Shown: positions 16,246-52,164, numbered from the stretch's first letter. The stretch: 64,000 bases of DNA from a virus (IMGVR_UViG_3300025131_011243:1-64000), one strand, 5' to 3'. Numbers and translations are program-made. The notes: generated by a model from the letters alone, not told the origin.

Positions 16246-17907
16246 TTAGCCACTTTGGGGACCATATATGGCCATGATTTCTGACCTAAGATTCAAGACA
16301 AATTGACGAGCTTCTTCTTCATTAGTGACCTCCCCGTTCCTCTGAGCCTCTAGAAGACTGTTTTGGGCCATTCCGATGAATCCCATAGTCTGTCCTTTGG
16401 GCAGATAGTGGGGCTTAAGGTCAGGATACATCTGCATAATTTCCCTACCATCGATAAACGGCTGTCTTGCTTTTTCAGTCATCTCTGCTCGATAAATTTG
16501 CATTGCTTCATACTGCCTGCGCTTCTTCTCAATTCCTTCAGGGGCATTCTCTCGCCCTGTAGCCAATTCATCCGCTGGCCCCAAGATTTGCCATATGAAT
16601 GACCAAGCTTTATCGGCAAGAGCATCGTTTTCTCCTACCATCTTTTTCATCTTGTCACGCATTCTCCCAAAGGCACCGCCCTTAACCTTCAAATCATCCG
16701 TACCCTCTTGTTCTTTCGTGATGTCAGCGTGATGCGCATACATATGGAACGCAACCAAAGTGTTGACAAACTTCCTGTCTTCCTCTGAGATATATCCCAT
16801 AGTTTTAGTAACAGCGTCAGATATCTCCATGGACCTGTTTTCATGCCCCTTGTACGTCATTCTTTCAGGTTCGGTCTCATGGGGCTTTTGGATATCAGGT
16901 GCCAATTTGCCAAGATCGTGGAACACAGCCGCAAGATTAACAAGAGATCTTTCATTATCAGGCAAGCCCAATTCCTTGGCCTTTTTATTTGCTTCCTCTA
17001 TAACCAGCAGCGTATGCTTCATCACATCCCATTTGTGATAAGGAGTCTGCTGATCCATTTCGATAGGTTTAAGATTTTCCGTTTCAGGAGACTTGAACAC
17101 CTCTCTGTACAAACCGGAGGAAAACAGAAGCCTCATTCCTTTTTCCGGATTGTCGGCTGACAACGTCTTTAAGATTTCAGGACCCGCACGTTGCGAATCG
17201 ACGCTTCCATACGAAGCCTGAACTTCAGGATCTGCCATCGCAGCTTCCGTAGCAGGATCAATCGTTGACTGAGGGTAGCGAGCATAGAACCTGGCGAGCC
17301 TCAACATTCTCAGAGGATCGTCACTGAATGTCGTCTTGGGGTCAAGTGGCGTGCGCAACGTCATGGTTTGAAGATCTTGCATTCCTTTCTTAGTAAAATC
17401 TTCTACCTGACCATTCTCTATGTTGTAGAACATGGAGTTGATAGTCAGATCTCTTCGCTCAGCATCTTCTTGAGGCGTCCCCATCATCATTTCTGTAGGG
17501 ATACGTGAGCCAGTTTCATAAATACCTGACGGTTCCTTTCTCATGTTTACAAAATCAATCTTCTGTCCGTCGATTTCGATAGCCGCCGTCGCCAAGTGTT
17601 TTGATTTATCCAAGTTTTGCGGAACGACGTAGGATCCCCCAATCAGACCTCTTGGGACCTGATTCTGTTGGACGTATAGTTTAATTGCTTCAACAAAATC
17701 CTTACCAGTCATTCCTTCAAGAGAAATATCAATATCATCGCTATCTTGATCCATCAACTTATCTCGAACCCATCCTCCGGCGACACGGGGATGAGGATCG
17801 TTAGGAAGCGACTGGGCTACCATCGTAATAACATCGAAAACCTTTCGTTCATGGTCAGTGATAACGATAGGAGATTCGTTTTGAGATACTTTACGATACC
17901 AATTCAT
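16246..17907 (-). CDS. cca: CCA-adding enzyme/poly(A) polymerase family nucleotidyltransferase with HD domain; MNW leader
   Basis: VAGGWVRD, DIDI, EDAERRDLTINS, DDPLRMLR, FHDLGK; start reassigned to MNWYRKVSQ. Confidence 0.92.
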   Translation of the reverse strand: MNWYRKVSQNESPIVITDHERKVFDVITMVAQSLPNDPHPRVAGGWVRDKLMDQDSDDIDISLEGMTGKDFVEAIKLYVQQNQVPRGLIGGSYVVPQNLDKSKHLATAAIEIDGQKIDFVNMRKEPSGIYETGSRIPTEMMMGTPQEDAERRDLTINSMFYNIENGQVEDFTKKGMQDLQTMTLRTPLDPKTTFSDDPLRMLRLARFYARYPQSTIDPATEAAMADPEVQASYGSVDSQRAGPEILKTLSADNPEKGMRLLFSSGLYREVFKSPETENLKPIEMDQQTPYHKWDVMKHTLLVIEEANKKAKELGLPDNERSLVNLAAVFHDLGKLAPDIQKPHETEPERMTYKGHENRSMEISDAVTKTMGYISEEDRKFVNTLVAFHMYAHHADITKEQEGTDDLKVKGGAFGRMRDKMKKMVGENDALADKAWSFIWQILGPADELATGRENAPEGIEKKRRQYEAMQIYRAEMTEKARQPFIDGREIMQMYPDLKPHYLPKGQTMGFIGMAQNSLLEAQRNGEVTNEEEARQFVLNLRSEIMAIYGPQSG

Positions 17908-18271
17908 CTGTCCATGGTCCTTGATGGTCATGCTTTACCTGATTCCTCAACGCCTGTTCAGGGCTATATCTTACTACATTCTGCGGCTTAAACAAGTCGT
18001 AAAAATCAGCATTTTCTATAGACCCTCTACCCGACATATTCATCTGCCAATCGTACACTCTTCCGACAGCTTCTATCCAAGCATGTTCATACCTTTTCGG
18101 CTCTAATGCTAATGGCTCCTCCACCGTTCCGTGACATACGAAAATATTTTCTTCAGGGACGACCCCATCTTCAACCATTGTCCAAGCCAATTCGTTTGCA
18201 AAGGGGAAGCACAGACCGATAGGACAGGTCTCCCGTTCATTGGCCAATTTAACTACTTCATGCCAATTCAT
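17891..18271 (-). CDS. MNW-leader transglutaminase/papain-like protein
   Basis: MNWHEVVKLAN; GLCF, HAWIE, VYD (Cys-His-Asp). Confidence 0.65.
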   Translation of the reverse strand: MNWHEVVKLANERETCPIGLCFPFANELAWTMVEDGVVPEENIFVCHGTVEEPLALEPKRYEHAWIEAVGRVYDWQMNMSGRGSIENADFYDLFKPQNVVRYSPEQALRNQVKHDHQGPWTDELVS

Positions 18272-18734
18272 TGCAGTCGTCCCCGCCCATGCGAACAATA
18301 CGGATATCCCTAATAGCTTCCGGAGGAATCACTGCCTTTTTCCTAGACGAGTAGGAAGGATTGATCAAAAACTGATTCCTACCCGATCCTCCGGTTTCTC
18401 TACTGACCGATTGACTCATAAACCATTGTGAATCAAGTTCCATCCTGATGACGGCTGACTTATCTTTTTCCGCCATTGCTTTCATGCATCCATAGACAGC
18501 AGCTTCAGACGAAGTAGTCGAAAATCCGACATGACCCAAGTCGTCATGCGTAATCGTTCTTTCTTGCAGAATCTTTCTAGCCCTTTTTAGGCTTGTTCCA
18601 TGAAAAACAATATACCCGCCTTCTGGGCTAAGATCGGGCGGCGTATCTCTTTCATGTATGGTATCGCCTACCCCCTCTCTCAATGGAAAGGGGGGCCACT
18701 CTTGTTCCTCTTGGGCGTAATGAAACCAATTCAT
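18258..18734 (-). CDS. MNW-leader ADP-ribosyltransferase-like protein
   Basis: MNWFHYAQ; VFHGTS, GFST, A.VY, IPPEAI. Confidence 0.6.
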   Translation of the reverse strand: MNWFHYAQEEQEWPPFPLREGVGDTIHERDTPPDLSPEGGYIVFHGTSLKRARKILQERTITHDDLGHVGFSTTSSEAAVYGCMKAMAEKDKSAVIRMELDSQWFMSQSVSRETGGSGRNQFLINPSYSSRKKAVIPPEAIRDIRIVRMGGDDCNELA

Positions 18735-19159
18735 TCTTTGTCATCCGGATGAGGAATCTTAACCGCTTGAATGCCATGCTCTTCAGCACTGTCAATATCT
18801 GGTTGGAAGTCATCATGATGTATAGCCGCACCTATCTCGGCCAACTGCGGACCTTTATGATCTCCGCTGGTGAAGTAAATCTGATCAACGGGAAGTTTGT
18901 GCTTAGCAATAAAATCGGCAACAGAAATGCGACCGCTTTCTTGATCGTGGGTCGATTCGGCCTCTTCGTTTCTTGATGTGACGACAACAATACGATGACC
19001 AGCCTCATGGTATTTGGTCATTCTCTGTATGCTGTCCCAGTTGGGTTCCATGCCGCCACGCCATAGCTGATCTTCCCATGACCATATAGGCATAGTGAGA
19101 GTGCAGTCGAAGTCGAACGATACTGTACTGGGAGATTCCAACTCTTGATACCAATTCAT
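18731..19159 (-). CDS. MNW-leader HAD-family phosphatase
   Basis: SFDFDCTL, VVTSR, K, HHDD. Confidence 0.8.
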   Translation of the reverse strand: MNWYQELESPSTVSFDFDCTLTMPIWSWEDQLWRGGMEPNWDSIQRMTKYHEAGHRIVVVTSRNEEAESTHDQESGRISVADFIAKHKLPVDQIYFTSGDHKGPQLAEIGAAIHHDDFQPDIDSAEEHGIQAVKIPHPDDKE

Positions 19160-19236
19160 AGCCATTTTTCTTCCTGACGCTCAGTTTATTTACTGAATTC
19201 TGGCTATGGTATCCTCTTATGTCGTAAAACGCAAGG

Positions 19237-51102: not shown

Positions 51103-51122
51103 GGAAAGGCGTGAAAGTAATT

Positions 51123-51548
51123 TTATGCCATCTGCTGTTGCTGAGGTTGCTGAGGTTACTGTTGTTGCTGCTGCCCTTGTTGCTGTTCCTGCTGTATCTC
51201 TTGGATCTGCTGTTGTATGCCCTGTAGCCTTTGCTGTAATGTCTGCTGTAGTTGTTGCAATTTCTGTAAATCAACCTGCTGATCATGCGAACCCACGCCA
51301 GCAGTTTGCGGACCAGAAACTGGTTGCTGGGAAAAAGTACCAGTGTCCTAATCTACCACTTCTTCCATTTCCTGTTGAGGCTGTTGAGGCTGCTGAGGCT
51401 GTTGTTGAGTCTGAGGCTGAGTCTGCTTGTTCCACCACCCCGCCTGCTTACCTATCCGCCTCCACTCATTCTTGCTCATCTTAAACGTATAACCACCATC
51501 GTCTTTCAAGATGAGTTGGGAACCTGATTTGCTAGATAGTTTTTTCAT
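51123..51548 (-). pseudogene. Gln-rich protein gene interrupted by in-frame TAG and TAA
   Basis: Frame continues past TAG (51350-51348) as DTGTFSQQP...LQKLQQLQQ..., and past TAA (51158-51156) as PQQPQQQQMA*. Confidence 0.65.
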
Positions 51549-52095
51549 TATATTCTCCTACTGGACCTCGATGGGGTGCCTCTTCTTTGCGAAAATCCCA
51601 ACTACGATCTACATGTTTATTTTCAGCCAAACCACTTTCATATGGCTGATGTTCTTTGATTATGGAAATAAGGTAATCCGCATACCCCACTTCTTCATCA
51701 TGAGTAACTATGTCTTTCCTGGAATTGAATGGAATACCTCTTAGCTTGAGCCACCCTTCCATCAACTTAACAGCCCCAGGTTTCCCAGCTTGCAAAAACT
51801 GAGTATAAAGTTCTTCAAAATCTGTATCGCCTTCAATGATATCAGCCTCTTCCTCTTCCGTAGGGAATTTGTCATTCCATTGCCAAGATTGGGCTAATTT
51901 CCTTTCTGCTACGTTTCTCACCTCTTCCTCTTTGGCCGGAATTCCCCAACCTCCGCAAGGTATGCAAGACTTAAGATCAGGAAGAGGAGGAACCTCACTC
52001 TTTGGATAAAACATCAGTCTATCACATTCAGGACATCTGATATATTCAATCATGCCTTGATCCCGCTTGTATCCCGCTGTCCTGATTGTTCTCAT
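51532..52095 (-). CDS. second-leader protein (MRTIRTAGY) with zinc ribbon
   Basis: CPEC...CIPC; internal RKLAQ. Confidence 0.7.
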   Translation of the reverse strand: MRTIRTAGYKRDQGMIEYIRCPECDRLMFYPKSEVPPLPDLKSCIPCGGWGIPAKEEEVRNVAERKLAQSWQWNDKFPTEEEEADIIEGDTDFEELYTQFLQAGKPGAVKLMEGWLKLRGIPFNSRKDIVTHDEEVGYADYLISIIKEHQPYESGLAENKHVDRSWDFRKEEAPHRGPVGEYNEKTI

Positions 52096-52137
52096 CTATC
52101 TACTTTCCCCACAATTGGGTAGATTCCTTTGGGATTC

Positions 52138-52164
52138 CTATTTGATTTGGAAGAACCAGTTCAT
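52138..52164 (-). other. orphan MNW leader mini-ORF (MNWFFQIK*)
   Basis: ATGAACTGGTTCTTCCAAATCAAATAG overlapping the upstream stop. Confidence 0.6.

Follow-up and report, generated by a model that had tools for sequence, protein, structure and literature searches.

Internal proteins of phage T4, which include diverse anti-host proteins, carry a short N-terminal peptide called the capsid targeting sequence (PMC3012670). Here we describe a comparable arrangement in the first 64,000 bases (hereafter the window) of a 122,591-base virus record, IMGVR_UViG_3300025131_011243. In this fragment, a different peptide, with the consensus M-N-W-[Y/F]-K-x-[A/S]-[Q/N], heads at least 23 otherwise unrelated, closely packed genes. 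We refer to the peptide as the tag, to its coding sequence as the leader and to the remainder of each gene as the cargo; leaders are named by the position of their ATG. As with the T4 capsid targeting sequence, one N-terminal peptide is found on several unrelated proteins of a single phage, in this case at 24 starts, and one of the tagged proteins belongs to the Tad6 family of anti-defence proteins, in keeping with the T4 theme. Unlike the T4 peptide, to which it is unrelated in sequence, the tag is present on far more genes (23 in 64 kb), occurs also inside proteins and is known from sequence alone.

Polyvalent proteins of phages and plasmids unite 2 to 15 effector domains in one polypeptide, for which delivery with the DNA and processing into units have been proposed (Iyer et al. 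2017, PMC5512222). That paper does not use the word 'linker' in its main text, and no delimiter motif is seen in the passages of it that were consulted. The domain repertoire here is the one described in those passages, with ART-PolyVal, PcfJ, GNAT and helicase domains, and homologs of the window's modules occur within proteins of 1,000-5,944 amino acids (aa). Unlike polyvalent proteins, the modules of the window are mostly separate genes, each with its own delimiter, and no MPTase was found in the fragment. In T4-type phages, intergenic promoter-terminator motifs, the PeSLs, have been associated with modular shuffling (PMC2839356, PMC4122927). As far as the available parts of those two papers describe them, PeSLs resemble leaders in that short dispersed repeats flank small accessory genes and coincide with indels or replacements between close relatives; in our data, one indel, a 476-base unit between two leader copies of a metagenome contig, is bounded by the repeat in this manner. 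By the same accounts, leaders differ from PeSLs in that the repeat comprises the initial 14-24 bases of each coding sequence and is preceded by no conserved DNA.

In polymorphic toxins of the CdiA-CT/Rhs type, cargo is swapped at a conserved peptide-coding junction whose DNA serves as homology. The tag is likewise a short conserved peptide motif that borders variable cargo, but it heads every module rather than a single C-terminal tip, lacks accompanying immunity genes and occurs in a phage. The locus also resembles an integron array, being a row of small, unrelated open reading frames (ORFs) on the same strand that are gained and lost as units. Unlike in integrons, neither an integrase nor attC-like DNA was found, and the common element is translated. 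No description of an MNWYK-type tag was found in the literature searched with the motif strings, which returned unrelated papers; supplementary tables were outside the scope of this search. On balance, we consider it likely that the leader is a peptide-coding sequence, that the array corresponds to a polyvalent effector protein that splits and fuses, and that the repeats allow in-register recombination.

The record represents part of the genome of an uncultured marine megaphage, as judged from its portal relatives, its head genes, its estimated completeness and the origin of matching sequencing runs. Among its gene products are a Mu-like portal, a major head protein and a large terminase. The portal relatives (40 of 41 loci 49-66% identical, one 38%) include complete genomes of 461-548 kb with terminal repeats, and CheckV estimated the record to be 26% complete. 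The runs that contained window DNA were marine and hydrothermal-vent metagenomes, with no RNA dataset among them.

The tag peptide and its junctions

The exact 14-mer ATGAAYTGGTATAA occurs five times (0.00 expected; 0 of 100 shuffles reached five). With up to two mismatches, 23 matches were found where 1.32 were expected and where the largest shuffle value was 5. According to a manual comparison with a codon-level list, 20 of these 23 matches are ORF starts encoding MNW. Across the record, the codon-level scan identified 24 starts of the form MNW[Y/F/H], of which 23 fall between 15 and 53 kb of the window (Table 1).

To describe what is conserved, we aligned the 24 leader copies together with 45 bases to each side. 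Conservation starts with the A of the ATG, is codon-periodic and extends through approximately codon 8: the 45 upstream positions carry 0.03-0.36 bits each, and the first two positions of codons 1-3 carry 1.8-2.2 bits. Wobble positions vary (AAT 10, AAC 14; at base 12, T 15 and C 9), Y and F alternate at the fourth residue, and relatives carry the variants MSWYK, MGWYK, MKWYK and MDWYK. Because conservation sets in at the ATG, is lacking upstream and leaves wobble bases free, these data indicate that the leader is selected as a peptide and not as DNA. The tag appears to be an add-on to known domains: the Tad6 profile begins at residue 19 of the tagged protein, as does the J domain of another.

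An earlier, sequence-only reading of this DNA had listed six ATGA overlaps, four genes ending xEL(V/A)(S)* within the next leader and one in-frame join, all three frames thus occurring without a spacer. We recovered all 11 junctions at their reported positions. The upstream TGA lies on the ATGA of leaders 18734, 20354, 26881, 35245, 41506 and 52164; upstream genes end TDELVS*, DCNELA*, DLNELV* and DKDELV* inside leaders 17907, 18271, 40980 and 43856, respectively; and at 42480, MNWHK lies in frame within a 629-aa ORF. Beyond that list, there is a 1-base overlap at leader 43392 and a 2-base spacer at leader 21040. Overall, the spacer is absent or at most 2 bases at 12 of the 24 leaders.

Within the contig, overlap with the upstream neighbour is more frequent for leader genes than for others (11/16 versus 27/95; Fisher p 0.003). 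For ATGA overlaps alone, the figures are 6 of 16 leader genes versus 16 of 95 near same-strand non-leader pairs (p 0.08). The sequence-only reading had itself remarked that such overlaps are common in phages. The six plain ATGA junctions, like these 16, resemble the coupling seen in compact phages. Unlike in plain ATGA coupling, xELV* overlaps recur, because the fixed tag supplies the stop. In the relatives G005, G006 and part of G009, 30 leaders have an upstream gene nearby; 8 overlap that gene, and the remaining 22 come after its own stop and a short spacer. Since this rate equals the non-leader background of the window record (p 1.0), the overlap excess in the contig is not a property of the leader as such. 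The eight overlaps in relatives comprise six of the ELV type (five ELV*, one ELVQNS*), one ATGA and one of a single base. Overlaps of the xELV* type, 11-17 bases long, were found four times in the window, six times in these relatives and in 3 of 150 database homologs.

Whether homologs of the xELV*-ending proteins lack the tail had been put forward as a check on its origin; the outcome did not refute the cassette proposal of the sequence-only reading, and neither did the check on gene order described below. The tail is kept in the homologs that are 83-84% identical: P0001, an 83% homolog of the 179-aa NELV* protein, also ends NELV, its C-terminal residues matching an ORF that runs onto the downstream leader in the metagenome contig L107, and P0155, an 84% homolog of the 158-aa NELA* protein, retains its tail. 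A 50% homolog of the latter, P0156, has neither tag nor tail, homology stopping just after PPEAI[R/K]DI. We further surveyed the best 150 representatives of the two modules of the 629-aa protein, 59 of which are at most 420 aa long. Three of the 150 end in ELV, and all three begin with the tag; among the short representatives, ELV ends were found in 2 of the 18 tagged at residue 1 and in none of the 37 that are untagged. For the 182-aa GNAT ending DELV*, the database search found the protein itself alone. The tails accompany a downstream leader and not a protein family, and the xELV tail is a tolerated, recurrent by-product of the fixed tag.

The tag motif at module borders and K-x-A in a protease-scaffold protein

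A feature that is new here is the occurrence of the tag motif in frame at the module borders of fused and giant polyvalent-type proteins. In ORFs of at least 100 aa from four genomes, NW[YFH][KRNQ] was matched 14 times beyond residue 45; judged by eye, about 11 of these matches lie in an extended tag context, at a module border or near a C-terminus. The CCA-adding enzyme, which has an N-terminal tag in the window, has in G006 and G009 an extra N-terminal domain and an internal motif before the C-terminal module. These two orthologs, 46% identical overall, both keep the internal motif (ANWYGKVKVSQ and GNWFKQVKLSQ), which therefore would be functional inside proteins and not merely a decaying relic. 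Similarly, the 207-aa cargo tagged at 26261 is the C-terminal module of a 581-aa protein in G005, where it lies behind an internal LNWYQ. A 1056-aa protein of the window and a 1041-aa protein of G005 both have a C-terminal NW[Y/F]K; homology between the two was rejected, as BLAST gave no match.

Within the window, the 629-aa protein is the only one in which two modules are joined; most modules of the window are single genes. A HMMER search with this protein yielded 837 relatives, in which residues 1-190 and residues 305-629 form two separate modules: where a module stands alone, the first residue of the protein aligns with residue 1 or 305 of the query. The tag is present on 22 of the 59 surveyed forms of at most 420 aa, at residue 1 in 18 of them and otherwise within the first 40 residues (4 forms). 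In at least six of the representatives, which are fused proteins, the joint retains the motif (P0007, P0019, P0034, P0036, P0111 and P0123). Homologs of the two modules also occur inside the proteins of 1,000-5,944 aa mentioned above. P0019 (1719 aa) contains five NWY[R/K]-type motifs at module borders, and P0026 and P0033 contain 14 and 10 [K/R]-T-[A/S]-[A/S] motifs, respectively, versus approximately 0.5 expected. The K-T-A-[A/S] at the module borders of these two proteins resembles the K/R-T-A/S core of a second N-terminal tag found in the window (Table 1).

The domains on tagged proteins are also of the polyvalent type. Among 39 tagged proteins of relatives, ART-PolyVal and PcfJ were each found in two and GNAT in one, together with DUF5661, HicA and SLT domains; the window has GNAT twice and a UvrD helicase. 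Since the same motif borders the modules of fused proteins, the array would represent a polyvalent effector protein split into genes, and the tag is best read as the gene-level form of a polyvalent-protein delimiter.

In the model that we propose, each effector module would begin with a delimiter peptide, which would serve as the N-terminal tag of separate genes and would lie between modules where these are fused. The array would be a polyvalent effector protein broken into genes, or genes heading toward fusion. Because the genes are packed without spacers, upstream genes would end in the tag, a gene running into it stopping within 1-5 codons. The three junction frames (ATGA, xELV* or fusion) would then represent three viable outcomes at one protein-level delimiter. 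As the tag DNA is repeated, its 14-24 identical bases would provide homology for in-register recombination, and exchange would add, remove or reorder whole tagged genes while the upstream stop is kept and the ORF is always tagged. An extension of this model, which we regard as possible but doubtful, is that the tag DNA is a frame-safe seam along which capsid-loaded effector modules move freely between genes and polyproteins. Because every module starts with the same 14-24 bases, in-register exchange would yield an intact tagged gene, and an in-frame join would still give a working two-module protein with the delimiter between its modules.

What the tag might do is suggested by a 2306-aa protein encoded between the portal and the major head protein. 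Its residues 58-115 match a head-maturation protease (E 1.3e-5), and an intein with a LAGLIDADG domain occupies residues ∼150-385. In this protease-scaffold protein, K-x-A occurs 38 times versus 13.6 expected (2.8-fold; 0 of 2000 shuffles reached 38); the reversed control, A-x-K, occurs 17 times versus 13.6, which is not significant. Together, the K-x-[A/S] half of the tag and the K-x-A-rich scaffold fit a load-and-cut signal comparable to the T4 capsid targeting sequence (PMC3012670). The role of the tag is probably the loading of cargo into the head, its cleavage, or both. The N-terminus of the 2306-aa protein, MAFYKTAT, resembles both tags.

Possible exchange at leader copies and alternative explanations

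A metagenome scan yielded one contig, L107 (3,028 bases), that is 85% identical to window positions 40993-38441. In L107, the end of the 179-aa gene (NELV*) is followed by leader L1 (MNWYKQAF) on a 157-aa zinc-ribbon cargo (Zn_ribbon_Top1), a 2-base spacer, and leader L2 (MNWHKQAQ) on the Tad6-like cargo. In the window, the 179-aa gene runs directly into the leader of the Tad6-like gene, such that the difference is exactly one leader-to-leader unit of 476 bases, present in L107. At sites upstream of the ATG that distinguish L1 from L2, the window agrees with L1 in 15 cases and with L2 in 2, and differs from both in 6. Within the leader, it agrees with L1 at bases 10 and 12; the 10 informative sites among bases 18-34 comprise 8 that match L2, none that matches L1 and 2 that match neither. 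The switch point of this one-gene indel is therefore located between leader bases 12 and 18. The upstream NELV* stop survives the indel, and the leader that remains is a hybrid, a pattern that would be the expected result of in-register exchange between two leader copies.

To survey populations, we aligned contigs of four runs to window positions 33001-53000. In each of runs X4 and X5, which are from different studies, a contig matches up to 40980 and then, right at the ATG, passes into a common unrelated sequence. This variant is a third context upstream of leader 40980, which is also the site of the L107 indel. Other loose contig ends lie at 43369, 44369, 44391, 44392 and 44398. Among the 24 of 76 loose ends that were listed, 9 are at or within ∼7 bases of a leader edge (40980 and the five positions just given), 8 are in low-complexity sequence at 51.1-51.4 kb and 7 are elsewhere; leaders cover less than 2% of the examined stretch. 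The clustering may be due in part to cross-matching of leaders or to lost alignability in fast-evolving cargo. The CAG/CTG-rich low-complexity stretch (51100-51430) attracts contigs of other organisms, with a depth of up to 162 in run X7. Three contig joints (40980/40981 to 44369, and 43392 to 44369) were not counted as deletions, their sides being only 20-23 letters long. They would read as a stub, MNWYKESQ*, directly before another leader.

Of 10 virus records related through the portal, 8 contained the strict tag pattern, complete genomes of 461-548 kb among them; the reversed control gave none. Cargo order is not stable among these relatives, being A...B-x-y-C in G006 versus Z-C-B-A-W in G009. 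Cargo A is tagged in G006 and begins just past the tag position in G009; another cargo starts with MNWYK in G009 and with MKIIKTAK in G005. Close relatives of the cluster were sought in IMG/VR with the helicase, the 233-aa and 629-aa tagged proteins, the Tad6-like protein and the L107 zinc-ribbon protein. These searches gave two helicase matches, 24-25% identical and without MNW starts, or none. A blastn search with window 40001-48000 gave no match in deposited phage genomes. The proposal of the sequence-only reading that tagged segments are cassettes swapped at leaders is thus backed by one leader-to-leader indel, whose switch lies inside the leader in the sole close comparison available, by permuted cargo and by contig breaks; an integron-like mechanism is not. 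Overall, cassette-like exchange at leader copies is partly supported, by one clean case and consistent indirect evidence, and we infer that recombination at leaders may be the usual route.

The model of a split and fusing polyvalent protein sets out from the junction anatomy, the peptide-level selection, the internal motifs, the single leader-to-leader indel and the permuted cargo of relatives, and several points weigh against it. Of the 59 short homologs of the 629-aa modules, 37 are untagged, and the peptidase MPTase-PolyVal (PF18818) had no match in the 122.6-kb record, estimated to cover only ∼26% of the genome. One clean indel only backs recombination at leaders, and the two sites that place its crossover inside the leader may simply be substitutions, the sequences being 15% diverged. 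Once selection has acted, any phage mosaic should show breakpoints at gene borders, cargo-less stubs are not expected from in-register exchange, and the short-sided contig joints may be leader cross-matches or tandem-leader variants of other phages. Finally, we infer head loading from the K-x-A half of the tag; N-W-Y is not enriched in the scaffold, which has a single W[Y/F][K/R] motif, SWFR.

An alternative that we consider unlikely is that the tag is a peptide signal only, that genes are turned over by illegitimate recombination and that selection keeps the events at gene borders. Mosaic borders at gene ends are usual in phages; the one resolved indel, placed within the leader by two sites, the stubs and tandem leaders, which point to out-of-register events, and a leader overlap rate in relatives that equals background are all in line with such a process. 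It accounts less readily for an indel that removes exactly one leader-to-leader unit and leaves a hybrid leader, for nine of the listed loose ends lying at the edges of leaders that occupy so little of the stretch, and for the motif being kept at the fusion joint in at least six database representatives.

In the sequence-only reading, leader DNA is a self-punctuating junction that terminates the upstream gene in either off-frame. That it is an evolved, integron-like recombination junction of this kind, selected to equip one cargo with a start and tag and the preceding one with a stop, is quite improbable. Such a device would agree with the spacer-free occurrence of all three frames, with a cassette indel whose switch point is inside the leader, with cargo-less leader stubs and with the excess of overlaps among leader genes in the contig. 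However, a frame+2 stop within 17 bases was found in only 13 of the 24 leader copies, and the T that forms it is not enriched over genome codon usage (TAT 9/11 versus 57% genome-wide, p 0.08; TTT 5/12 versus 45%, p 0.7). The off-frame stops are by-products of the tag codons: the frame+1 TGA arises from the Asn codon AAY after ATG, and the frame+2 TAA from T[A/T]T followed by AAR codons. At the starts of 140 other long ORFs, a frame+1 stop within 14 bases was seen in 71, a frame+2 stop in 40 and both in 16. The tag variants MGWYK and MDWYK cannot, given the genetic code, carry ATGA, and ATGA overlaps are common outside leaders. Moreover, the 22 of 30 leaders in relatives that come after a spacer do not end the upstream gene, which has its own stop. 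As to an integron-like mechanism, the tyrosine integrase profile PF00589 had no match in the 122.6-kb record, itself a fragment, whereas all control genomes matched. No attC- or att-like conserved DNA was found either, positions -45 to -1 all being at or below 0.36 bits and conservation being confined, codon-periodically and with free wobble bases, to codons 1-8. The integron reading was rejected on these two grounds; 'cassette array' therefore fits the behaviour of the locus and not its mechanism. Purpose-built self-punctuating DNA is not needed to explain the data.

That the leader acts as RNA, as a translation-initiation enhancer or coupling element for genes that lack good ribosome-binding sites and whose shared peptide is incidental, is scarcely credible and was rejected: many leaders abut or overlap the upstream stop in a layout suited to translational coupling and a weak purine signal is present at -12 to -9, but wobble positions vary freely, the Y/F changes are conservative in the protein, and the motif is conserved in frame inside proteins, where there is no initiation and the Met is replaced.

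Cargo, neighbouring genes and implications

The tagged 141-aa protein (40555-40980, -) matches the Tad6 family of type I Thoeris inhibitors with an E-value of 4.5e-35, which suggests counter-defence cargo. Back-translated patterns of this Tad6-like query, including MNWYKQAQ, matched 222 metagenome and 43 viral contig stretches, of which one alone coded for a protein related to the query; in both kinds of collection, the tag probably occurs widely on other cargo. In the 158-aa cargo of leader 18734, an FHGT...GFSTT pattern recalls, presumably, ADP-ribosyltransferases; no family match was found.

Table 1. Leaders, leader-like motifs and related features of the window
Feature	Position	Strand	Remark
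Leader MNWFRY, 129-aa cargo	15086..15099	-	Upstream stop 128 bases before ATG
Leader MNWYRK on CCA-adding enzyme (PolyA_pol + HD)	17894..17907	-	Upstream gene ends DELVS* inside, frame +2
Leader MNWHEV, 126-aa cargo	18258..18271	-	Upstream gene ends NELA* inside
Leader MNWFHY, 158-aa cargo	18721..18734	-	ATGA overlap with upstream gene
Leader MNWYQE, 5'-nucleotidase-like cargo	19146..19159	-	Upstream stop 80 bases before ATG
Leader MNWFKS on DnaJ-domain protein	20341..20354	-	ATGA overlap
Leader MNWFSK, 229-aa cargo	21027..21040	-	2-base spacer after upstream TGA
Leader MNWFKQAN, 437-aa cargo	22343..22356	-	First 24 bases identical to those of leader 52862
In-frame NWFK motif (...GTNWFKCIKSAAYS...), cargo-less leader-like stub	23036..23047	-	21 residues before end of 1056-aa protein
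Leader MNWYKR, 207-aa cargo	26261..26274	+	From codon-level scan
Leader MNWFKE, 193-aa cargo	26881..26894	+	ATGA overlap
Leader MNWFKF, methyltransferase-like cargo	33427..33440	-	Weak Pfam match
Leader MNWFNQ, 82-aa cargo	35232..35245	-	ATGA overlap with UvrD-type helicase gene
Leader MNWYKQAQ on Tad6-family (anti-Thoeris) protein	40967..40980	-	Upstream gene ends NELV* inside
Leader MNWYKE, 179-aa cargo	41493..41506	-	ATGA overlap with 629-aa gene
Internal in-frame leader MNWHKESQ joining two modules of 629-aa protein	42467..42480	-	Each module elsewhere a separate tagged protein
Leader MNWYKFAQ of 629-aa two-module protein	43379..43392	-	1-base overlap with upstream stop
Leader MNWYKQAV on GNAT acetyltransferase	43843..43856	-	Upstream GNAT gene ends DELV* inside
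Leader MNWYKESQ on GNAT	44378..44391	-	Population contigs diverge at 44369 and 44391
Leader MNWFKK, 251-aa cargo	44473..44486	+	Divergent from leader 44391
Leader MNWYKT, 209-aa cargo	47258..47271	-	From codon-level scan
Leader MNWFKI, 89-aa cargo	50678..50691	-	From codon-level scan
Orphan 8-codon stub MNWFFQIK*	52138..52164	-	ATGA ends upstream gene; 42-base spacer, then second-tag gene
Leader MNWFKQAN, 233-aa cargo	52849..52862	-	From codon-level scan
Five genes with second N-terminal tag M[R/K]x[I/V][R/K]T[S/A/K]G[Y/W]	46250..52095	-	Starts at 46630, 48910, 49410, 50373 and 52095
2306-aa protein between portal and major head protein	58732..64000, to 65652 of record	-	Protease match, intein

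Several neighbouring features were also recorded. An opposite-strand, membrane-protein-like gene (22437-23018, +) directly follows the stub end of the 1056-aa protein (TNWFKCIKSAAYS..., 22982-23047, -), an arrangement that suggests an insertion severed a former tagged module. A release-factor-like gene with a GGQ motif (30311-30952, -) lies within the tagged cluster. Inteins are present in an S8 subtilase with a lamin-tail domain (27466-30300, +) and in a ribonucleotide reductase (L002:1228-5040, -), and free-standing LAGLIDADG genes are located at 3654-5705 and 56046-57035. The portal gene (L001:2166-4439, -) carries an insert resembling DUF559 / REase_MTES_1575 endonucleases at residues 628-696. 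Two proteins of the structural region, L001:1741-2157 (-) and L001:15563-16501 (-), begin MVFNLSKQAG and MTFNLKKHAE, respectively, and may represent a third common N-terminal pattern.

If the model of a split and fusing polyvalent protein is true, it would link three aspects of phage biology that are mostly considered separately: protein address tags, giant polyvalent effectors and the rapid turnover of accessory genes in huge phages. It would also provide a search rule for the counter-defence arsenal of megaphages, namely genes that start with MNWYK and neighbours that end in ELV. If the more doubtful extension to a frame-safe seam also applies, the leaders would constitute a counterpart, within coding sequence, of integron or PeSL cassettes and would offer a way to assemble and dismantle polyvalent proteins.

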